From: a virus
Virus record (IMG/VR): IMGVR_UViG_3300045988_069571
Span: 1-44,934 of that record
DNA length: 44,934 nt
Strand: one strand, 5' to 3'
This document shows, one piece after another, positions 1 through 44,784 of this stretch. Numbering within the stretch: position 1 is the stretch's first letter; each line of letters opens with the position of its first letter. The notes under the pieces are model-generated. The model saw nothing but the letters and a program-made list of their open reading frames with translations. It did not search any database and was not told the DNA's origin. The position numbers and the translations under genes were made by a program.

Positions 1-119
1 CTTTTTTTTGCTCACAGGGCAATGACAACGGAGCCCTCGCTGACCTCCTGCTGGAGCCGCTCCTCCAGAAACTTCTTGATGGTCTCCCGGGCGGTCAGCT
101 TCCACATGCCGCCGTCGGC
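1..119. repeat. Terminal direct repeat, copy 1 (identical to 44816-44934)
   Basis: Base-by-base comparison by eye: c + T8 + gctcacagggcaatgac...ccgccgtcggc occurs at both ends. Confidence 0.95.
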
Positions 120-2979: not shown

Positions 2980-3084
2980 TCTCGTTATGTGAACTATTAT
3001 ATTCTCATATCGTGATTTTATCAAGCTGGCAGATTTACTAAAAATCTCTTTTTGTGATTGTGCTTGATTATTCACATTTTGTGA
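2980..3084. promoter_or_regulatory. Genetic-switch operator set: four 13-bp TC(T/A)C-N5-GTGA sites
   Basis: Sites are TCTCGTTATGTGA (2980-2992), TCTCATATCGTGA (3003-3015), TCTCTTTTTGTGA (3045-3057) and TCACATTTTGTGA (3072-3084). Two of them lie in the spacers of the divergent promoters. Confidence 0.55.
2996..3024 (-). promoter_or_regulatory. Early-lytic promoter TTGATA-17-TATAAT
   Basis: On the minus strand, TTGATA is the revcomp of 3019-3024, followed by a 17-nt spacer, and TATAAT is the revcomp of 2996-3001. Confidence 0.7.
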
Positions 3085-3092
3085 TATATAGT
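3064..3092 (+). promoter_or_regulatory. Repressor promoter TTGATT-17-TATAGT
   Basis: TTGATT at 3064-3069, a 17-nt spacer containing the operator at 3072-3084, and TATAGT at 3087-3092. Confidence 0.6.
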
Positions 3093-3110
3093 GTAGGCGA
3101 GGTGGTCAAA

Positions 3111-3521
3111 GTGAGAATCCAAGAGATACGAAAAAGTAAAGGAATAAAGCAGAAGGAATTGGCCGCCAAGCTTGGGATTGCGGCTAATACATTGAGCCAG
3201 TACGAAACAGGTAATAGAGAGCCAGACCTTGAAACCATCAAAAGGATTGCGCTCGTATTAGAAGTTACTGTAGACGAACTCCTTGACGCAAAAACAAAAG
3301 CACCCACCCTTACCAAGAAGGATGAGCGCGATATCGAAAAGAAGTTAGCGGATATTTTAGCAGATCTAGAGAGCGGGCAGGACGGACTTATGTTTTCAGG
3401 CGAATCCATTGACCCTACCACCCGCGAGCTCCTGGCGGATTCTCTTCGTAACAGTATGGAAATGGGCAAGAAACTTGCCAAGCAAAAGTATACGCCGAAA
3501 AAATACCGCAAGGAGGATTAA
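3111..3521 (+). CDS. CI/ImmR-like XRE-family repressor (136 aa)
   Basis: GTG at 3111 lies after the SD GAGGTGG (3099-3105) and downstream of the promoter. The track's longer start at 3054 would precede the promoter. The motif QKELAAKLGIAANTLSQYETG is an HTH. Confidence 0.8.
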   Translation: MRIQEIRKSKGIKQKELAAKLGIAANTLSQYETGNREPDLETIKRIALVLEVTVDELLDAKTKAPTLTKKDERDIEKKLADILADLESGQDGLMFSGESIDPTTRELLADSLRNSMEMGKKLAKQKYTPKKYRKED

Positions 3522-3523
3522 CG

Positions 3524-3967
3524 GTGGATACCAAAGTGATAGCCGAAGCGATGTGCCGTAAATACGAAACGCGCAACCCGTTTGACTTGGCGGCGTCACT
3601 GGGTATTATTGTGCTACATGAGCCGTTGGGCGAAATTTTGGGGTATTATAACCGCTGTTACAAGCAGAAGTTCATACATATCAACGAGGAGCTGGAGGGG
3701 TACACCGCTACATTTACCTGCGCCCATGAGGTGGCTCATGCTATCCTGCACCCGAATCTGAGCACGCCGTTTCTGAGGGCACACACAAGGTTTTCGGTTG
3801 AAAAATTTGAGAATGAAGCTGATCGCTTTGCGCTTGATTTTCTGTATGATGACAATGAACTTCTCCCATTTTTAGAGCGCACAATATCAGATGCTGCGGC
3901 CTATATGGGAGTTCCGCAACGTCTTGCTAAATATCGCATGAGTACAATTAAAAATTTTTATACCTAA
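3524..3967 (+). CDS. immA: ImmA/IrrE-family zinc metallopeptidase (anti-repressor protease)
   Basis: GTG start after the SD AAGGAGG. HEXXH is present as CAHEVAHAILH, together with the downstream ENEADRFALDFL motif. The position directly after the repressor matches the immR-immA arrangement. Confidence 0.8.
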   Translation: MDTKVIAEAMCRKYETRNPFDLAASLGIIVLHEPLGEILGYYNRCYKQKFIHINEELEGYTATFTCAHEVAHAILHPNLSTPFLRAHTRFSVEKFENEADRFALDFLYDDNELLPFLERTISDAAAYMGVPQRLAKYRMSTIKNFYT

Positions 3968-4016: not shown

Positions 4017-4685
4017 GTGAAGCAGTGCTTCTCAAAAATAAAAATTTTTCTAAATAGGTATGCAGATGTTTTTATCCCTATACTGCTTGTAGTTTCAATA
4101 CTACTTGGAGCCGGACTATATGACGCGATTACGCAGAATGTAGAATGGAAAAAACAAATTGAAACACTAAGCGAAGAAGTAGAAGAACTTGAGTCAAGGA
4201 ACACTAATGTAAAAAAGCAACTGTCTCAAAAAGAATCGGAAATAAAAGATTTAACAGAGAAAAACGAAGATCTGTCTTATTCTGATTTTTTCACCAAATG
4301 CGTCATAGGGTTAGTTTACGAGAACGACAGTACGTATTACCATACACCGATTTGTAGCTTAACGGATGAATTAGGGGCATTTAATGTTTTTTCTTCATGG
4401 GTGTGTGACAGTGTAGGTTTAATGCCTTGCCCTTCATGCCATGATGCACATACGATTGAGACTATTAGCAGACTAACCGAGGAACCGAAATCCGATCTAA
4501 AACATAATGCAGAAACTGTTCCTCCTTCAAGCCAAGAGCAGCGGGTAGAAGTCACCGTCTATATCACTGAGACAGGCGAGAAGTACCACCGGGCCGGATG
4601 TCAATACCTACGCAAAAGTCAGATCCCAATCAGTTTGGATGATGCCCAGGCCATGGGATATACAGCCTGTTCGCGTTGCTGGTAG
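4017..4685 (+). CDS. Membrane-anchored coiled-coil protein with two YH..C...CxxC motifs
   Basis: GTG start after AAAGAGG. It has an N-terminal TM helix (VFIPILLVVSILLGAGL), a coiled coil, then YYHTPIC...CPSC and KYHRAGC...CSRC. The segment is visibly AT-richer. Confidence 0.7.
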   Translation: MKQCFSKIKIFLNRYADVFIPILLVVSILLGAGLYDAITQNVEWKKQIETLSEEVEELESRNTNVKKQLSQKESEIKDLTEKNEDLSYSDFFTKCVIGLVYENDSTYYHTPICSLTDELGAFNVFSSWVCDSVGLMPCPSCHDAHTIETISRLTEEPKSDLKHNAETVPPSSQEQRVEVTVYITETGEKYHRAGCQYLRKSQIPISLDDAQAMGYTACSRCW

Positions 4686-4691
4686 AAGGCC

Positions 4692-4720
4692 ATAAAAAGA
4701 GCCGCCCCAGGAGAGGCGGC
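4692..4720 (-). terminator. Intrinsic terminator for the minus-strand sORF transcript
   Basis: On the minus strand: GCCGCC-TCTCCTGG-GGCGGC followed by TCTTTTTAT (plus A-run at 4694-4698). Confidence 0.5.
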
Positions 4721-4721
4721 C

Positions 4722-4750
4722 TTGACAAGAGAATACAGGGCGGTTATAAT
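4722..4750 (+). promoter_or_regulatory. Perfect consensus promoter TTGACA-17-TATAAT
   Basis: TTGACA at 4722-4727, exactly 17 nt of spacer, and TATAAT at 4745-4750. Confidence 0.7.
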
Positions 4751-4756
4751 GAGCAT

Positions 4757-4848
4757 GAAAGAGGCGCTACCGGCAGACGGTGGCCCCTATCTCATGTCAT
4801 TGAAGTGATCGCCGAACTTTGGAAGGGGACGGCGGTCACTTCTTTTTT
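4757..4848 (+). ncRNA. Candidate ~90-nt antisense RNA (type I antitoxin-like)
   Basis: Runs from the consensus promoter to a hairpin (GTGATCGCCG 4805-4814 / CGGCGGTCAC 4830-4839) plus TTCTTTTTT (4840-4848). Its 3' end overlaps the stop codon of the convergent sORF. Confidence 0.5.
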
Positions 4849-4922
4849 GTGATCTGAAAGACCAGACCAACAACGCCAATAATCACCAGGGAGTAAGCAA
4901 AAAGCTCACTGTATGTAACCAT
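4836..4922 (-). CDS. 28-aa hydrophobic peptide, candidate type I toxin (BsrG / holin-like-toxin type)
   Basis: My translation is MVTYSELFAYSLVIIGVVGLVFQITKKK. The SD GAGGGGG (revcomp of 4931-4937) is 8 nt upstream. The ORF is below the track cutoff. Confidence 0.55.
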   Translation of the reverse strand: MVTYSELFAYSLVIIGVVGLVFQITKKK

Positions 4923-5113
4923 CAGCATCACCCCCTCTCGCTGGAGGGGGCAAGAAGTCCCCTCCGGGATGGAGAGGCCAACCGCCTACCGTTGCGGGTA
5001 GCGCCATAATCAGGATAGCATATCGTTCGACAGAAAGCAAGAGAAACCGCCCCCGGTACTCGCAATACCAGAGGCGGCTCAAGGGCAGATGCTTGTGGGC
5101 TGTCTGCTCCTTC

Positions 5114-5142
5114 ATTTTATCGGAATGGAGGGAATTTGTCAA
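5114..5142 (-). promoter_or_regulatory. Promoter TTGACA-17-TAAAAT reading away from int
   Basis: On the minus strand, TTGACA is the revcomp of 5137-5142, followed by a 17-nt spacer, and TAAAAT is the revcomp of 5114-5119. The -35 box overlaps the int ATG. Confidence 0.6.
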
Positions 5143-6209
5143 TGAAAGTTCCAAAGGCCAGGAAACTCTCGTCCGGGAAATGGTTTATACAGCTCCGCCT
5201 CGGCGGAGAAAGCATCCCGGTAACGGCCGGCACAGAAAAGGAATGTACCCGGCAGGCTCAGGCGGTAAAAGCAGAGTATCTGGTTGGTAAGAGAGCCCCG
5301 AAGAAACCGGAGGAAACAGACTCCCCGACATTGAACGAGGCCATAGACAGCTACATATCGGCTCGGGACAATACCCTGTCCCCTCTGACTGTGCGGGGAT
5401 ACCGAACCATTCAAAAGCACCGGTTCAAGAGCACACTGTTCCGCAGGCTGGACGAAATACCAGAGTCCGAGTGGCAGGTCATTGTAAACCAGGAGGCCGC
5501 CTTATGCTCTCCCAAAACACTGAAAAACGCCTGGGGATTTATTCGAAGCGTCGTAGAGGACGCCACCGGGAAAAAGCTGCCGGCGATTACCCTTCCGGTT
5601 CAGATCCCAGCCGAAAAGCCATTTCTTTCACCTGATGAAATAAAAAAATTTGTTTCTGCTGTCAAGGATACGAAATATGCGGTTCCATGTTTGCTGGCTT
5701 TATGCTCTCTCCGCGTATCAGAAATTCAAGCCTTAAAGTGGCAGAACATACCGCAGAACCCGAAATTCATCCGCGTATCCGGCGCGGTAGTCTTGAACGA
5801 GGACAACAAGTATATTGAAAAGCGCCAGAACAAAAATGTTACCTCAACCCGCAAGGTCCCCATCATGATTCCAGAACTGGCAGCGGCGCTGGAGCGTGAC
5901 CGGAAACCATCCGGCCCGGTGCTGGAGATACATCAAAACAGCCTTCGGTGCGCCATCAAAAAGATTTGCAGCGCGAATGGGCTTCCGAATGTCGGAGTCC
6001 ATGGCCTCCGGCACAGCTTCGCCTCCCTGGCTTACCACCTCCAGATTCCGGATAAAATCGCAATGGAAATCGGAGGCTGGGCTGACGCCACAACTATGCA
6101 TAAAATCTATACCCACATTGCCAAGTCGGACATAGCTCGCTATGAGACGGCCCTGAGTGCATTCTATCGCAGCGAAGAAAATGCTAACAAAAATGCTAAT
6201 GAAGAATAA
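5142..6209 (+). CDS. int: Tyrosine recombinase / phage integrase
   Basis: ATG at 5142 lies after GGAGGG (5127-5132). The C-terminal catalytic-type motifs are LRVSE, HGLRHSFASL and the final Y in KIYTHI. It is adjacent to attP. Confidence 0.9.
   Translation: MKVPKARKLSSGKWFIQLRLGGESIPVTAGTEKECTRQAQAVKAEYLVGKRAPKKPEETDSPTLNEAIDSYISARDNTLSPLTVRGYRTIQKHRFKSTLFRRLDEIPESEWQVIVNQEAALCSPKTLKNAWGFIRSVVEDATGKKLPAITLPVQIPAEKPFLSPDEIKKFVSAVKDTKYAVPCLLALCSLRVSEIQALKWQNIPQNPKFIRVSGAVVLNEDNKYIEKRQNKNVTSTRKVPIMIPELAAALERDRKPSGPVLEIHQNSLRCAIKKICSANGLPNVGVHGLRHSFASLAYHLQIPDKIAMEIGGWADATTMHKIYTHIAKSDIARYETALSAFYRSEENANKNANEE
6175..6199 (+). repeat. 25-bp direct repeat copy 1 (AAGAAAATGCTAACAAAAATGCTAA)
   Basis: Identical to 6405-6429. 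Internally it is a tandem of AAAATGCTAA about 11 bp apart. It lies in the last codons of int. Confidence 0.9.
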
Positions 6210-6245: not shown

Positions 6246-6273
6246 GAGGGTTCGAATCCTTCACCCGCTGCCA
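6246..6273 (+). other. attP core: 3' portion of a tRNA gene (T-arm + acceptor 3' strand + CCA)
   Basis: GAGGG-TTCGAAT-CCTTC forms a T stem-loop, followed by ACCCGCT, G and CCA. No matching 5' acceptor strand (AGCGGGT) or anticodon arm occurs upstream. Confidence 0.7.
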
Positions 6274-6313: not shown

Positions 6314-6404
6314 CTTTATTTTTCAATGGTTTGCGGGCGTTTTTGAAGTTTCATAAATGAGAGCTACGATAACAAGTCGGATACTCAAAAATACCCTTTT
6401 GAAA

Positions 6405-6429
6405 AAGAAAATGCTAACAAAAATGCTAA
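6405..6429 (+). repeat. 25-bp direct repeat copy 2
   Basis: Identical to 6175-6199. The pair brackets the tRNA-derived core. Confidence 0.9.
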
Positions 6430-6455
6430 CGGATTTTCAAATGACATAGATAAGA

Positions 6456-6484
6456 GAACACCGCCCTATTAATGGGCGGTGTTC
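6456..6484 (-). terminator. Terminator at the end of the minus-strand cargo genes
   Basis: An 11-bp stem (GAACACCGCCC 6456-6466 / GGGCGGTGTTC 6474-6484) with a 7-nt loop, followed on the minus strand by TCTTATC. Confidence 0.55.
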
Positions 6485-6499
6485 TTATTGTCGCCTTTA

Positions 6500-9737: not shown

Positions 9738-9815
9738 AAAAATAAGGAGTCCGTGAGGAGGGCGGCGACGTGTACCAACCCTGTATCCTCACGTCCTCCA
9801 TGTCTATATTGTCGC

Positions 9816-13100: not shown

Positions 13101-14963
13101 ATTGCCGCGCTGTTTTAGTGCATGGATAATCTCGTGGTTAGGGACAACGGCGGACAACTCCTCCGGGATGGCATCCGAAAGATAAATTACTCCATCCGAT
13201 GTAAGTCCGAGCGTATTCGGCCTGTGTGCTTTTATGACACTATCCTCTACAACAACCGCATCAGGTGTATAGGCTTTTGCCTGTCCAAGCGCACGATTTA
13301 CAGCAGGTGAAGAAGGGTTTTCGACTATGTGCCCCCTGGCCCATTCTCTGATTCTTGCTTGCCCCGCTGCGCCGCTTTCTCCACGGTATACTGCTCCAGC
13401 CGTTTCCGGTATCTGTCCATCTCTTCCGCCGTGTATACCCGCTTCTTCGGCTTGAAGCCGTATAGTCCCTCCACGACCTGTTCCCAGGTCAGATGCTTGT
13501 CTTCGCTCATGCGTTACGCCTCCGTCTGCCCATTCAGCCGTTTCTCGGTTCTCTCTTCCATCAGTTTGTGAAGATGCTCCTTCTCCTCCGGTGTAAGTTC
13601 TCTGACCTCCGCCCCGTACATCTGCTGCATAAACTCCTTGAAGTTCGGGAGCTGCCGTTTCTCTTCCGCCATCATTCACGCCTCCTGTCCGAATATTTTG
13701 TGTGCCTCCATCATAGACCGCCCCGGACGGATTGTCAACGGCGCTGCGCTGGTAGGCGGGGGAGCCGGGCAAATAGACCCGCTTTCCGGCCAGCGCCTCT
13801 TCCCCGGTGGGGAGCATTGTGGCGAGCGGGTTGTCCGCCACATCTCGGTAAGCGGGCGTACTCAACCGTTCCCCGGCCCTGGCCGCGATCTCCGCGTTGG
13901 AACCAATGCTGCGCCGGGTGGAATAGATATCCGAGATTGTCCCCGGAAGCTCCAGGCCGCCCTGGAGCACTCCGGCGGCCACGGCGCCCATGAGCGCGCT
14001 CTGTGCAATCTCCTCCGGCGTGGCGTTGGGGGCGTCCGGGTCATAAATGGCCCGCTGCAAATAGGGGGTGAGGACGGTGGAAAGCGCCTCCTCGCCGCCC
14101 TCGCCTGCGATATCCAGGGCCCGGCTGACCAGGGGGCTTGCCTTGACCGCCTCGGCAATCTTCTTCACCTTGCCGCCGCCCAGGCCGGGGATGCCGCCCG
14201 CGATGCCCTCAATGGCGGTCTCCAAGGCCCCGGAGGCCGCGCCGAAGGCCAGGGCCTGCCCGGATGTCGCCCCCTCCGCTTTGGCCTGGCTGGCCGCATT
14301 GCCTGCCGCCTGGAGGCCGAACAGCGACCGGCCCACGTTCTCCCCGCGGGAAATCGCCTGGGCCGCGTTGAGCCCCTTCCCTGCTGCGGACACGACCTTG
14401 GACGCACCAATACCGGGGAGCATCTGCACGATGGTCTGTCCGATGCCGGTTACATTTTCTGCCCCCTGACTGGGGCGGTATCGCTCACGGATGCTCTCCT
14501 CATAGTCCCGCGTGACGCTGTTCTCCAGGAAGGCGTCAGCGTTCCGCCCGGCCCACTCCGATACCGGGTTGGGGACCAGACCACCCAGGGAGCTGATGCC
14601 CTGCACCCCCTTGTAGAAGCCGCTGCCTATAAAGTCCGTAACGCCCTCTCCCGCGCCGAGCAGAGCGGCTGCCGCCCGCTCGCTGCCATACAGGAACGGG
14701 GAGCCCTCCACGCTCACCCCGCCCGCCAGGAAGCCCCTCTCTCCCGCTTTGGGCAGGGTCAGGGCTTTCCCCTTGCTCTCAGGCAGCGCGGCGGGCGGGG
14801 CGGATTTTACCGTCCGCTGCGCCGGAGCGGGCCCCGCGCCGCCTGCGGCACTCTCCGTCTCCTGACTTTGCCCAATCTGGCGCAGATGATTCAGCCTTTC
14901 ATATACCGACGCTTCGCTGCTTTCCCCACGCAGGCGGTTCAAACGCTCCTGGATACTCGCCAT
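10128..14963 (-). CDS. Giant virion/ejection-type protein (1611 aa) with embedded HExxH zincin-like motif
   Basis: SD AAGGAGG lies before the ATG. It has a Gly/Ala-rich N-terminal third and a disordered Gly/Arg linker. HEIIH is encoded at 13122-13136 within a visibly AT-richer patch. Confidence 0.8.
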   Translation of the reverse strand: MASIQERLNRLRGESSEASVYERLNHLRQIGQSQETESAAGGAGPAPAQRTVKSAPPAALPESKGKALTLPKAGERGFLAGGVSVEGSPFLYGSERAAAALLGAGEGVTDFIGSGFYKGVQGISSLGGLVPNPVSEWAGRNADAFLENSVTRDYEESIRERYRPSQGAENVTGIGQTIVQMLPGIGASKVVSAAGKGLNAAQAISRGENVGRSLFGLQAAGNAASQAKAEGATSGQALAFGAASGALETAIEGIAGGIPGLGGGKVKKIAEAVKASPLVSRALDIAGEGGEEALSTVLTPYLQRAIYDPDAPNATPEEIAQSALMGAVAAGVLQGGLELPGTISDIYSTRRSIGSNAEIAARAGERLSTPAYRDVADNPLATMLPTGEEALAGKRVYLPGSPAYQRSAVDNPSGAVYDGGTQNIRTGGVNDGGRETAAPELQGVYAADVRGGGQRTYTGGEGASSQTDGRENRETAEWADGGVTHERRQASDLGTGRGGTIRLQAEEAGIHGGRDGQIPETAGAVYRGESGAAGQARIREWARGHIVENPSSPAVNRALGQAKAYTPDAVVVEDSVIKAHRPNTLGLTSDGVIYLSDAIPEELSAVVPNHEIIHALKQRGNEAYRSFVDTVGERIAYTGDPTGVLDVVIESRYPGKTLFDLSMEELDTVYDELNALVWGYYKADPENARAQFAGVFQDYDAYIQELDTIMEGARQPVENQTGAGPTQAQGPESSVGAARKGFDPWSEFQGTRSEFFPEGANAARPVDVPTTDPQGRRIRKTASTAMGAKAIPDEVVGDIQNMVLRGELSYERVSDKSSINRAIRTIKEKEFWGALEEFRNSVSKGVVSKDIATLGQQLLINAANAGDGKATAELLSLYAQMETTAGQAVQAASILRKLAPSDQLYAAKRVVSELEKTIQKNYKDLEITIDPSLIEEFNQKTDQAGRDAVLDKIYQNVADQVPAKWKDKWNAWRYMAMLFNPRTHIRNIVGNVGFQPLRWTKDRVAATIEAGVSKISGGRLGRTKSFAANPALYKAAWADWSNVRDVLSGNKYDDIRTEINSRRRIFRTAPLEAGRKINSWALEAEDAIFKRITYADALAGYLQSNGVTAEQMRNNTVDTQLLSRARDYAGREALKATYQDRNMVSDKVVQIARALGPAGEAVLPFKRTPANILVRGMEYSPAGLAKALTYDLIQVKRGRMTGAEAIDYIASGLTGSGLMALGAYLFAQGIVTSGGGDDEGQDAINDLTGVQNYALNLPGGGNVTLDWLAPEALPFFMGVELMDSMGQGGNTAESISTALKSISDPMLELSMLQSLNDVIDSVSFSENKLGALVSSALVSYFTQPIPTFGGQIERSAEDVRMTTYTDKNLRLPTDLQYAIGRASARIPGWDYQQMPYIDAWGREDSSGPLWLRMANNFLNPAYTSNKQVTPVDEEIQRIYDQTGDASVVPQRPERYITVDGERIDLSKEKYEQYATKRGQMQFEMLWNIIDNPAYRSMSDTDKAFVIDSVYEYADKTTKSEISNYELDGWVKTAAQSGLSPEDYILFRAATVDIEGDKDENGKTIRGSEKKKVLNVIDQMNVSDEVKDKYYYAAGYDEDTISDAPWHSWGWW

Positions 14964-20360: not shown

Positions 20361-21704
20361 TCAAATCAGATTCAGCCGATCCAGCACCACGGCCAGCTCC
20401 TGCCGGGTCATATTGTCACGGGGACGGGTGCCGTCCAGCACGCCCTTGTCTTTGGCTTTCTGCCACGCCTCAGCGGACCAGGCGTCCGGGGTATCTGCGT
20501 TGTCCTCTCCTGGATCGGCCTGCCACGCGACGCCCAGGAACTCACAGATGCCCTTTGCGGTGGCCTCGGCCAGCTTGTCCCGGTACTTGCTATCCTTGAG
20601 ATACTCCGTGTCCATCTTGTTGGTATGGAAGCCATACTCAATGAGCGCGGCGGGGGCGTCGGTCTTGGCAAGCACAGTATACAGCTCGTGCTTGATAGGT
20701 TCACTCCGCAGGGACACCCCGGCGGCGTGGAAGGCGTTGACCAGCTTGGAGGCCAGCACATTGCGCTGGGCCGTCATGGGCCCGGCGCTGGTGTAGATCT
20801 CCAGCCCGGACGCGCTTGACCAGCCTCCCTCCCCGGCGGCGTTGGTGTGGATGCTCACAAAGCAGTCCGGCTTTGCTTTGTTGCTGATGTTGGCCCGCTC
20901 CGTCAGGCTGGGGTAATTGTCCGCCGTCTTGGTGAGCACCACGCCCACCCCCTTGGCCTCCAGCAGCGGCTTGATGCGTTGGGCCATATCCCACGTAAAC
21001 TCCCATTCTTTGTAGGTGCCATCCGGGGAGCCGTTGACGTTGCCCGGACCGTGCCCAGGGTCTAGGCATACAGTGTGCTTGCTCATAGGCTTGTCCTCCT
21101 CTTCCGGCGGTGTCTGCTCCGCCTGCTTGAGATACACGCAAATCCAGTTGTGCACCTTGCGGCTGGCGGTGATGCGCTCTCCGCCAAAGTCGCACTGGCT
21201 GGAGCCGCCCCCATCCAGCATAACGGCGGAGGCCCAGCCCAGCCCGGCCAGCTCGTCCCGCAACTCCTCCGGCGTGGTCACGTCTCCGGTTCCGTCGCCA
21301 GAGCAGTAGAGGGCCAGACTGCCACCACGCAGGCCGATGGCGCTGCGCCCCCGCTTGCCTCCCTGGGCCGAGCCGTAGGATGGCTTGTCCACCGGCTTAC
21401 CGGAGGTAACGAGGGCGGTCACAGCGATAAAGTTGGCCGCTCCCTCGTACTCGGAGGTCATGCGGATGTCTGGGCCTTTGTCCCAGGCGTAGCCCATCGG
21501 CCTCCAGGGCGTGCCGGAGAGCATAGCCCCGCCCACCTTAAGCAGCGGGCAAGGGGTGCCGTCCGGGTTCCACATGCCGCCATTCAACACATAATGCGCC
21601 CCGGTCTCTGTTTTGACCTGGGATAGCGTTTTGCGGCAGTTGGTGACTCTCAGCTCAATCCGCTCCACGGAGGAGAGCGGGACGTATGTAATGAGCTTAC
21701 TCAT
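20361..21704 (-). CDS. Endolysin: phosphodiester-glycosidase (DUF2233)-like + amidase_3 + SLH-like tail
   Basis: ATG at 21704 overlaps the upstream stop region. NGGMW...SAIGL...LDGGGSS marks the N-terminal domain. LDPGHG...SIHTNA marks the amidase. The C-terminus AWSAEAWQKAKDKGVLDGTRPRDNMTRQELAVVLDRL is SLH-like. Confidence 0.8.
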   Translation of the reverse strand: MSKLITYVPLSSVERIELRVTNCRKTLSQVKTETGAHYVLNGGMWNPDGTPCPLLKVGGAMLSGTPWRPMGYAWDKGPDIRMTSEYEGAANFIAVTALVTSGKPVDKPSYGSAQGGKRGRSAIGLRGGSLALYCSGDGTGDVTTPEELRDELAGLGWASAVMLDGGGSSQCDFGGERITASRKVHNWICVYLKQAEQTPPEEEDKPMSKHTVCLDPGHGPGNVNGSPDGTYKEWEFTWDMAQRIKPLLEAKGVGVVLTKTADNYPSLTERANISNKAKPDCFVSIHTNAAGEGGWSSASGLEIYTSAGPMTAQRNVLASKLVNAFHAAGVSLRSEPIKHELYTVLAKTDAPAALIEYGFHTNKMDTEYLKDSKYRDKLAEATAKGICEFLGVAWQADPGEDNADTPDAWSAEAWQKAKDKGVLDGTRPRDNMTRQELAVVLDRLNLI

Positions 21705-22074
21705 TGCCGTCCTCGTCGGGCTTGTCCGCGCCGCTGACCAGACCGGGGTCCTCGGCCTCCTCCACTGCATCCACCATAGCGGCATACTTGCCCTCCTGGT
21801 ACAGCTCATTGAGGGCCACGGCATTGGCAGACAGCTTGCGCGCCCAGACGTTAAACTCCTCGTTGTCCGCCTGTACGGCCTCCAGGCCGCCCAGCGCGGC
21901 CCACAGGGGGCGGTACAGCTCGGGCAGGGCCTCCGCGCCGGGGTAGGTGTCCAAACCGTCGATGATGTTGCGTTGTATCATGTTGGCCGCATCAGTGATG
22001 CCGCCGCGGGCACCGTTGCCCTCGTAGATTGCGTAGCAGGCAGGGGTGAGCTCGTTCCAGTTGATGTTTTTCAT
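21697..22074 (-). CDS. Hypothetical late protein (125 aa)
   Basis: ATG at 22074 has AAAGGAA upstream, whereas the track start at 22092 has no SD. Confidence 0.6.
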   Translation of the reverse strand: MKNINWNELTPACYAIYEGNGARGGITDAANMIQRNIIDGLDTYPGAEALPELYRPLWAALGGLEAVQADNEEFNVWARKLSANAVALNELYQEGKYAAMVDAVEEAEDPGLVSGADKPDEDGNE

Positions 22075-44724: not shown

Positions 44725-44784
44725 TTGACAACTCCTTTTGCCCCTGTTAAAATGGGGCTGTAGTTCTTTGGGGCGATGCCCCAC

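Follow-up and report, generated by a model that had tools for sequence, protein, structure and literature searches.

In the stretch of viral DNA analysed here (positions 1 to 44,934 of IMG/VR virus record IMGVR_UViG_3300045988_069571, 44,934 nucleotides (nt), hereafter the window), a small open reading frame (sORF) on the minus strand faces a candidate small RNA (sRNA) gene on the plus strand between positions 4692 and 5142, next to the integrase gene (int). The question raised by this locus is whether the two form a prophage-borne type I toxin-antitoxin (TA) pair with the layout of bsrG/SR4 and txpA/RatA, as was proposed in a sequence-only reading of the DNA. The five features listed in that reading are all present where it had placed them and its core is strongly supported in silico. 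The evidence covers the gene, its family, conserved promoters, a covarying sRNA structure and the geometry of the overlap, and we consider it very probable that the locus is a type I TA cassette in the lysogeny module of a temperate Oscillospiraceae phage. Chance can be set aside as the origin of these features, since well over 100 related loci show the sORF, antisense promoter and hairpins in the same register.

Coding conservation of the sORF

The candidate toxin sORF (28 codons and a stop, 4836..4922, minus strand) starts with an ATG at 4922 and ends with a TGA at 4838-4836. It encodes MVTYSELFAYSLVIIGVVGLVFQITKKK, a peptide with a predicted single transmembrane helix and a Lys-Lys-Lys tail, and is preceded by the Shine-Dalgarno (SD) sequence GAGGGGG (4937-4931), which ends 8 nt before the ATG, as the sequence-only reading had described. 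The automatic listing of open reading frames (ORFs) places the start further upstream, at a GTG at 4931, but the true start is the one that gives M-V-T-Y, because family conservation fixes it there. A plus-strand ORF of the same length (28 codons, 4722-4808) was dismissed, as it starts inside a -35 box.

The window peptide was searched with tblastn in 24 integrase-related loci, and two of them, L005 and L010, encode the same peptide on the same strand and directly upstream of int, with 43-52% identity to the window copy. The alignment of these three peptides was used as query for a wider search, which matched coding sites both in species-representative genomes (226) and in IMG/VR viral contigs (113). 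Overall, more than 230 intact homologues were found in Oscillospiraceae and Lachnospiraceae genomes and in the IMG/VR viral contigs, the genera including Oscillibacter, Pseudoflavonifractor, Flintibacter, Anaerotruncus, Butyricicoccus, Lawsonibacter and Oribacterium. In the sequences of 160 fetched loci, 168 intact copies were counted, which correspond to 93 distinct peptides of 25-32 residues with a single outlier of 40 residues, and intact sORF variants are also present at 10 loci that had been missed by the first search pattern. Tandem arrays of 2-4 copies are frequent among these toxin loci; at L029 (728-2182), for instance, four complete toxin/sRNA modules with diverged peptides follow each other in tandem.

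Across the family, the mean entropy at the first, second and third codon positions is 0.88, 0.46 and 1.25 bits respectively, and single-base codon differences comprise 24195 synonymous versus 14716 nonsynonymous ones. Furthermore, the start M-V-T-Y-S-E/D-L is invariant with free third positions, and Ser5 is encoded by both AGY and TCN codons. The sORF is thus conserved at the amino-acid level in relatives, a check that the sequence-only reading had itself suggested, and the codon-position entropy and the synonymous excess indicate that it is a real gene under protein-level selection. In a search that was independent of the peptide, the exact pattern of the sRNA 5' hairpin gave 73 sites, 71 of them evaluable. 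An intact, hydrophobic, Lys/Arg-tailed convergent sORF was found at 60 of the 71, with its stop 42-58 nt past the motif, and the remaining 11 include two that are not losses, namely the upstream copy of a tandem sRNA duplication and an apparent intact sORF variant missed by the filter. The same sRNA 5' hairpin is also found at L186, L188, L200, L207, L250 and other loci (L185-L253) beside peptides with other N-termini (MSTSEVLQLCLVIIG..., MSFVTYEELFQF..., MVSHTELYAF...).

A conserved and covarying candidate antitoxin sRNA

On the plus strand, a TTGACA-17-TATAAT promoter (4722..4750) that matches the consensus at 12/12 positions was found by motif scan, and it is kept across the family. It is the only 12/12 match in the 44.9-kb window, in which five promoter matches with at most one mismatch are seen versus 0.04 expected. 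Downstream lies a candidate antitoxin sRNA of ~92 nt (4757..4848, plus strand, predicted ends) composed of a purine-rich 5' end GAAAGAGG, a first hairpin (~4762-4788), a variable linker and a terminator hairpin (4802..4848, plus strand) with 13-nt arms at 4802-4814 and 4830-4842 and a U-tract at 4843-4848. The convergent perfect promoter, the hairpin with its T-run and the coverage of the sORF stop codon by the RNA, all three recognised in the sequence-only reading, are present and, beyond this, conserved. Indeed, a convergent TTGAYN-16..18-TAnnnT promoter occurs in 129 of 149 distinct family loci, with the end of its -10 box 77-94 nt past the toxin stop.

The 3' arm of the sRNA terminator and its U-tract are the antisense of Thr25-Lys26-Lys27-Lys28-stop, so that the stop codon lies within the 3' arm. 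MAFFT alignments display a conserved sRNA 5' segment, (U)AGAAAGGGCGCUGCCGGUAGACGGUYRGCCCC, followed by the variable linker, the terminator stem GAAGURAYCGC...GCGRUYACUUC and the U-tract. RNAalifold finds this terminator, and two of its pairs show exchanges between GC and AU. One of them (columns 77:118; GC in 46 sequences, AU in 38) follows the choice of AAG or AAA for the last Lys codon, the other (columns 83:116; AU in 50 sequences, GC in 38) the choice of TAA or TGA as stop codon. For both of these strongly covarying pairs, the compensating base sits in the 3' untranslated region (UTR) of the toxin mRNA.

Covariation was then assessed on a hand-specified two-hairpin sRNA structure in 88 sequences, with slid-partner and shuffle controls. 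In this structure 89.1% of the cells pair, versus 33-54% with slid partners. Double-sided changes occur at 13 pairs and amount to 132 cells versus 55.7 +/- 10.8 in shuffled data, none of the 500 shuffles reaching 132. The minimum free energy (MFE) of the window sRNA is -43.6 kcal/mol (z -5.2 versus shuffles). A covariance model built from the sRNA alignment (R1) gives 69.3 bits for the window and matches both tandem copies in L005, and L010 is also recovered. A further R1 match at 6400-6491 (20 bits) was rejected, being merely the terminator hairpin of a neighbouring gene.

In Rfam (Rfam 15), no match reached the gathering threshold on the locus when the whole window was scanned; in 4300-5500 at E-values up to 10 only chance-level matches were obtained (ctRNA_pT181, 28.6 bits versus 56; ohsC, 22 versus 50), and in 19 related loci at E-values up to 1 no family reached its threshold. 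Two sub-threshold matches were observed in the related loci, one of TEG147, an S. aureus RNA, at L029 1756-1816 (minus strand, 41.3 versus 56.1 bits, E 7e-5), and one of BsrG RNA (RF01412) at L147 1449-1683 (plus strand, 22 versus 55 bits), which spans a toxin gene.

The sRNA gene is found as a tandem duplicate beside a single toxin gene at L005 (3489-3615 and 3634-3760, with a period of 145 nt and 87% identity), and duplications of the sRNA alone beside a single toxin gene are also seen at L108 (~1590-1790) and L191 (1544-1694). Such duplications suggest selection for antitoxin dosage.

Relationship of the peptide to holin-like toxins

The family consensus is MVTYSELFQF.L.I.GI.GL..QI.KKK, and the core has a mean hydropathy of 1.6-2.8 across 60 relatives, which describes a short single-helix peptide with a basic C-terminal tail. 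The Pfam model PF16935 Hol_Tox, whose gathering score is 23.3 bits, is matched by 24 of 40 family members with a best E-value of 5.2e-8. Four of the members score 32.8, 32.6, 30.9 and 23.4 bits, all of them at or above the cut-off, a peptide with 71% identity to that of the window scores 22.3 bits, and BsrG scores 34.5 bits on the same model. The start and end of BsrG as given in the sequence-only reading are correct, the BsrG sequence used here having a 100% tblastn match in phage SPbeta. Furthermore, the family profile matches residues 1-24 of PDB 7NS1 (E 8.7e-4, 22.5 bits), which is the 31-residue SprG1 toxin of the S. aureus sprG1/SprF1 system, a system itself found by homology to txpA/RatA (PMC8309996). 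The NCBI name 'putative holin-like toxin' is already attached to some relatives from Coprococcus, Dorea, Blautia and Oribacterium.

The exact peptide of the window is absent from a collection of 15 billion proteins, it matches none of the PADLOC and PHROGs models, and a BLAST search of 50,697 deposited phage genomes (DNA in distant mode, peptide by tblastn) returned no match. Through its relatives, and hence by transitivity, the membership of the window peptide in the TxpA/BsrG/SprG 'holin-like toxin' superfamily is supported.

Promoter, leader and predicted 3' end of the toxin transcript

The family alignment of upstream regions keeps the columns TTGCnn, a 17-nt spacer and TGnTAnnnT, which in the window correspond to a minus-strand promoter at 5012..5040, with a -35 box TTGCTT (5040-5035), a 17-nt spacer and an extended -10 box TGcTATCCT (5020-5012). 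Of 106 representative loci, 71 have an extended -10 box at a distance of 69-119 nt upstream of the ATG. From this position a start at ~5005 and a toxin mRNA 5' leader of ~83 nt (4923..5005, minus strand, aligned over 57 leaders) are predicted. Directly upstream of the promoter lies a terminator-like hairpin of 17 pairs (5044..5080, minus strand) with the tail UUUCUCUUGCUUU, which was not mentioned in the sequence-only reading. Of 149 family members, 71 have such a site ahead of their toxin promoter, most often 120-150 nt upstream of the ATG (122 nt in the window), and the hairpin probably insulates the toxin gene from outside read-through.

The leader begins with a hairpin, GGCGCUACC...GGUAGGC. 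It is followed by C-tract a, GGCCUCUCC (4979-4971), G-tract b, GGAGGGGA (4965-4958), C-tract c, CCCCCUCC (4950-4943), and the SD G-tract d, GAGAGGGGG (4931..4939), all on the minus strand. The SD, anti-SD and anti-anti-SD tracts are as previously described from the sequence, the SD having been delimited there as 4931-4937, and C-tract a is a fourth element beyond those three. A GAAAGGGGGG-type SD tract is kept in the family alignment. In RNAfold the SD pairs with the proximal C-tract in a 10-bp hairpin, whereas RNAalifold prefers the distal C-tract as its partner, and the two topologies (a:d with b:c versus a:b with c:d) each keep about 87% of cells paired, the pairing potential being conserved at 87-94% of cells. 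Occlusion of the SD in the toxin mRNA is thus plausible.

At the other end, a minus-strand terminator (4692..4721; stem 4721-4700, tail CTTTTTAT / CUUUUUAU) abuts the -35 box of the sRNA promoter, an arrangement that is also found in L005 and L010. The hairpin and T-run had already been noted at 4720-4692, together with their consequence that the toxin mRNA runs antisense through the whole sRNA before it ends. Indeed, the toxin mRNA should read through the whole sRNA gene, because the hairpin shared by the two strands lacks a following U-run on the minus strand, and the terminator at 4721-4692 is probably its 3' end, past the entire sRNA gene.

A probable type I toxin-antitoxin cassette

A convergent, 3'-overlapping layout has been described for TxpA/RatA, BsrG/SR4 and SprG/SprF (PMC8594479, PMC8309996). 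In these systems the antitoxin promotes toxin mRNA decay, SR4 and SprF1 additionally block translation (PMC8309996, PMC6563280), and RNase III cleaves the txpA/RatA and bsrG/SR4 duplexes (PMC8309996, PMC6563280). For the window locus, we infer the expression of both RNAs, their ends, the fate of their duplex, toxicity and the biological role as follows. The toxin mRNA would be transcribed from the weak extended -10 promoter (5040-5012), start at ~5005, carry a leader in which the SD can be occluded and end at 4721-4692, whereas the strong, presumably constitutive promoter at 4722-4750 would keep the ~92-nt sRNA in excess, the two promoters (TTGCTT / TGcTATCCT versus 12/12) being compared by sequence quality alone. 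The sRNA, whose predicted complementarity to the toxin mRNA is complete over the last four codons, the stop and the 3' UTR, would pair there, and by analogy with RatA, SR4 and SprF1 the duplex would be degraded, typically by RNase III, and/or the SD occlusion reinforced. Hence, the peptide would be made only once the sRNA supply fails. The flanking terminators at 5080-5044 and 4721-4700 would insulate the cassette from outside transcription. The role of the cassette would most likely be to stabilise the prophage or mobile element.

Several results weigh against this interpretation. The window peptide does not match PF16935 Hol_Tox even at E-values up to 10, in its 28- or in its 31-residue form, and it has no match in NCBIfam. 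The profile comparison with BsrG and holin-like toxin families that was suggested in the sequence-only reading is thus positive for the relatives and negative for the window peptide itself. In the direct comparison with BsrG, BLASTP gave no alignment and hhalign (peptide/profile) a probability of 4.9%; because this comparison is not significant, the link to BsrG is drawn at the superfamily level. About 9 of the 71 sRNA-anchored sites are without an intact toxin (decayed or orphan). Relatives that keep the region with a disrupted sORF, which that reading had named as a sign against itself, are therefore a small minority only, and a small minority of decayed copies is expected for toxin genes. 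In the leader, the covariation of the SD-sequestering helices is not above shuffle controls and the two topologies fit equally, the signal being absent because the tracts hardly vary; the leader alone also folds no better than shuffles (z -0.54). Finally, the first toxin-strand terminator across the family falls in clusters 20-40, 60-80 and 130-160 nt after the stop, and the length of the overlap is uncertain because the position of the toxin mRNA 3' end is not conserved.

To these points belongs the finding of Fozo et al. that YhzE-2, a member of a related family, was non-toxic when tested and that TxpA was toxic in one host only (PMC2887945). The pair could accordingly be real and the peptide a non-toxin small membrane protein under cis-antisense RNA control, with no addiction or killing, which would also agree with the fact that BsrG works without membrane permeabilisation (PMC8309996) and with the existence of decayed toxin copies. 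We regard this explanation as improbable. Indeed, the tested family members TxpA, BsrG, SprG1 and EF3263 are toxic on overproduction (PMC2887945, PMC8309996), and a strong antisense promoter opposed to a weak sense promoter, an SD that is predicted to be occluded and terminators on both sides are the design expected of a dangerous gene. The tandem duplications of the sRNA alone in L005 and L108 likewise speak against a harmless peptide. The type I TA cassette is retained as the best explanation of the locus.

The promoter at the integrase start

The sequence-only reading had assigned to the toxin another minus-strand promoter, TTGACA-17-TAAAAT (5114..5142, 11/12), the -35 box of which overlaps the A of the int ATG (5142). 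The sORF mRNA would then carry a leader of ~170 nt (170-185 nt), and toxin and integrase would be coupled through the overlap with the int start codon. The promoter is indeed present and overlaps the int ATG; it belongs to the class of matches that is rare in the window, and the 5080-5044 terminator, which lies between it and the sORF, could leak. However, that hairpin of 17 bp with a U-rich tail separates it from the sORF, and the promoter that is conserved in the family is the different one at 5040-5012, downstream of the hairpin.

Furthermore, the segment 5054-5142 has no counterpart in related loci, and the 5142-5114 promoter is absent in L005 and L010, the two loci that carry the module next to int. 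These are the only two of the 24 loci with a related integrase in which the module is found, neither of them having a promoter that overlaps int. When 22 int-homologue loci were scanned, none had a promoter at the position overlapping the int start (0/22), although some minus-strand promoter-like site was seen upstream of int in three of the 22. Moreover, most family members are not adjacent to a window-type integrase. The assignment of this promoter to the toxin and the proposed coupling with int did not hold up in these comparisons, and we consider such a coupling very unlikely; the promoter probably does not belong to the module.

The 5142-5114 promoter may still be active, because near-consensus promoters are rare in the window. 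In this case it may produce an RNA of ~75 nt, divergent from int and ending at the 5080-5044 hairpin, with some read-through possible. This RNA (within 5030-5142, minus strand) has a fold of -33.6 kcal/mol (z -2.7), and related loci yielded no counterpart of it. The sigma-70 consensus is matched at 11/12 positions at three more sites, 2996-3024 (minus strand), 13710-13738 (minus strand) and 44725-44753 (plus strand), the first of them directly upstream of, and divergent from, the XRE repressor gene.

Shared 5' sequence of the sRNA and the toxin mRNA

Both predicted RNAs of the locus start with GGCGCUACC, which appears in the window as an inverted repeat (left arm 4763-4775, plus strand; right arm 4993-5005; 92%). 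The same arrangement is found in L005 and L010, where the sRNA and the toxin mRNA share their first 9-13 nt. Within a locus the two 9-mers are identical in 21 of 29 loci versus 5.8 expected (0/10000 shuffles, a figure without phylogeny correction), and five minor variants are matched. Since the toxin mRNA carries the antisense of the sRNA in its 3' UTR, it is complementary there to its own 5' end.

We tentatively propose two readings of this sharing, which together we take to be possible rather than likely. In the first, the full-length toxin mRNA would fold back on itself in a hok-like manner, with the sRNA competing for the same pairing. In the second, the sRNA would possess a second module, composed of an SD-like GAAAGGGG and an anti-SD-like GCCCC, that contacts the toxin ribosome-binding site (RBS) or the ribosome itself in trans. 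Alternatively, the sharing may stem from gene conversion or from a protective hairpin common to both 5' ends.

For the pairing of the sRNA 5' domain with the initiation region, the cognate combinations give on average -22.1, the non-cognate ones -21.7 (permutation p ~0.07) and the shuffled ones -18.1 kcal/mol. There is a general C-tract/SD complementarity, but a locus-specific co-evolution of sRNA and RBS is not claimed on this weak cognate preference. The MFE fold of the window contains a 5'-3' helix, GGCGGUU/AACCGCC, that is different from the helix of the shared repeat. This fold-back is not claimed either: only 10 of 103 loci have both of its motifs, and cognate pairs are preferred only slightly (p 0.017, without phylogeny control).

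Genomic context

The window is a phage or prophage, as shown by PHROGs matches to a portal, a large terminase, tail fibres, an endolysin and a primase/helicase. Its lysogeny module contains an XRE repressor (3054-3521), an ImmA/M78 protease (3524-3967) and a 222-residue membrane protein (4017-4685, plus strand), and a tyrosine integrase (5142-6209) follows the sORF/sRNA pair; the relatives of this integrase are found in Oscillibacter, Dysosmobacter and other Oscillospiraceae. The order would thus be XRE repressor, ImmA protease, membrane protein, cassette, integrase and a predicted attP. Among 140 ORFs neighbouring family members there are 11 tyrosine integrases, 10 XRE regulators and five serine recombinases, in addition to phage genes. 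This neighbourhood fits a role at the edges of mobile elements, most simply in stabilisation.

That the peptide could instead be a phage lysis holin or antiholin, the RNA timing lysis, is extremely unlikely: the Pfam and NCBI name 'holin-like toxin' and the form of a single-helix membrane peptide with a basic tail would agree with it, but the endolysin is ~15 kb away (20361-21824), the sORF is part of the lysogeny module, many copies occupy non-phage chromosomal settings or stand in tandem arrays of 2-4, the peptide lacks a PHROG family match and, to our knowledge, known holins are far larger than 28 residues.

In the 222-residue neighbour, a membrane segment at the N-terminus is combined with a coiled coil and, at the C-terminus, with the Cys motif KYHRAGCQYL...CSRCW; its residues 172-221 match PHROG 14556 (unknown function). 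A similar C-terminal motif is present in an ORF that flanks another member of the toxin family. At the end of int, a perfect 25-nt direct repeat, AAGAAAATGCTAACAAAAATGCTAA, is found at 6175-6199 and 6405-6429, 230 nt apart, the first copy lying within the int 3' end. The stretch between the repeats at 6246-6273, GAGGGTTCGAATCCTTCACCCGCTGCCA, reads as a tRNA T-arm, 3' acceptor strand and CCA, and ARAGORN detected no complete tRNA in the window. Together, the repeats and the tRNA-like stretch after int are a probable attP. Elsewhere in the window, a full-length RAGATH-31 (RF03101) is found among the phage late genes at 9746-9799 (minus strand; 81.6 bits versus a gathering score of 71.8, E 1.2e-15).

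Comparison with known systems

The closest relative with a solved structure (PDB 7NS1) is sprG1/SprF1 from an S. aureus pathogenicity island. Like the window toxin, SprG1 has ~30 residues, one helix and a basic C-terminus, and its antitoxin RNA is cis-encoded and overlaps at the 3' end (PMC8309996). SprF1 also has a purine-rich 5' end comparable to that of the window sRNA, and the one of SprF1 contacts the ribosome (PMC8309996). In contrast, sprG1 produces two peptides from one frame whereas the window locus has a single start, SprF1 and the window sRNA have no detectable similarity, the host phylum branch and the genomic context differ, and the profile match is weak (22.5 bits).

The bsrG/SR4 pair of the B. 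subtilis prophage SPbeta resembles the window locus in being prophage-borne, in its match to Hol_Tox and in its convergent, 3'-overlapping sRNA. SR4 acts via both decay and SD occlusion (PMC8309996). BsrG and the window peptide family both start with M-x-x-Y-E/S-x-L and end with KKK, but BsrG has 38 residues versus 28 in the window, there is no significant direct similarity between them and the Rfam BsrG RNA model gave a single sub-threshold match (22 versus 55 bits) in the 19 loci. Moreover, unlike in bsrG/SR4, the terminator of the window sRNA is itself the antisense of KKK-stop.

TxpA, the founding 'holin-like toxin', is about twice as long as the window peptide. The txpA/RatA system of the B. 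subtilis skin element shares with the window the convergent, 3'-overlapping genes and the excisable element, and RNase III cleaves the duplex of its two RNAs (PMC2887945, PMC6563280). In earlier surveys, Clostridia were almost devoid of TxpA-like genes, with C. bolteae as the one species cited (PMC6563280). Unlike the TxpA genes of those surveys, the branch described here is abundant in both Oscillospiraceae and Lachnospiraceae, with an sRNA that had not been described.

The TA systems of C. difficile prophages, such as CD0977.1-RCd11, are comparable in that they are found in prophages of Clostridia and encode short hydrophobic peptides with a Lys tail (PMC6563280). The type I modules of C. 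difficile prophages were shown to contribute to prophage maintenance (PMC7699646). However, the C. difficile toxins have 34-59 residues and are without sequence similarity to the TxpA/BsrG family (PMC6563280). For hok/sok of plasmid R1 there is a possible likeness only, which lies in the complementarity of the window toxin mRNA 5' end to its own 3' UTR. The hok mRNA is inhibited by fold-back. That system differs in its unrelated peptide, in its Gram-negative host and in the overlap of Sok with the 5' region, and a fold-back in the window is not established.

The toxin family and the architecture are thus already known, and the known picture of the type I TA mechanism is unchanged. What is new is the abundance of this branch in gut Clostridia, an sRNA family that has no Rfam entry, a terminator that is antisense to KKK-stop and the design as an insulated cassette. 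Hundreds of copies, mostly unannotated, are present in Oscillospiraceae and Lachnospiraceae of the human and animal gut and in their prophages, for which the covariance model is usable in annotation and the cassette can serve as a marker for the ends of mobile elements. If true, either the fold-back or the second-contact reading of the shared 5' sequence would be a regulatory layer undescribed for the TxpA/BsrG/SprG group. In the terminator that doubles as the antisense of KKK-stop, two genes constrain each other. Finally, in organisms that do not lend themselves to manipulation, these cassettes are candidates to explain the stability of prophages or the exclusion of phages.

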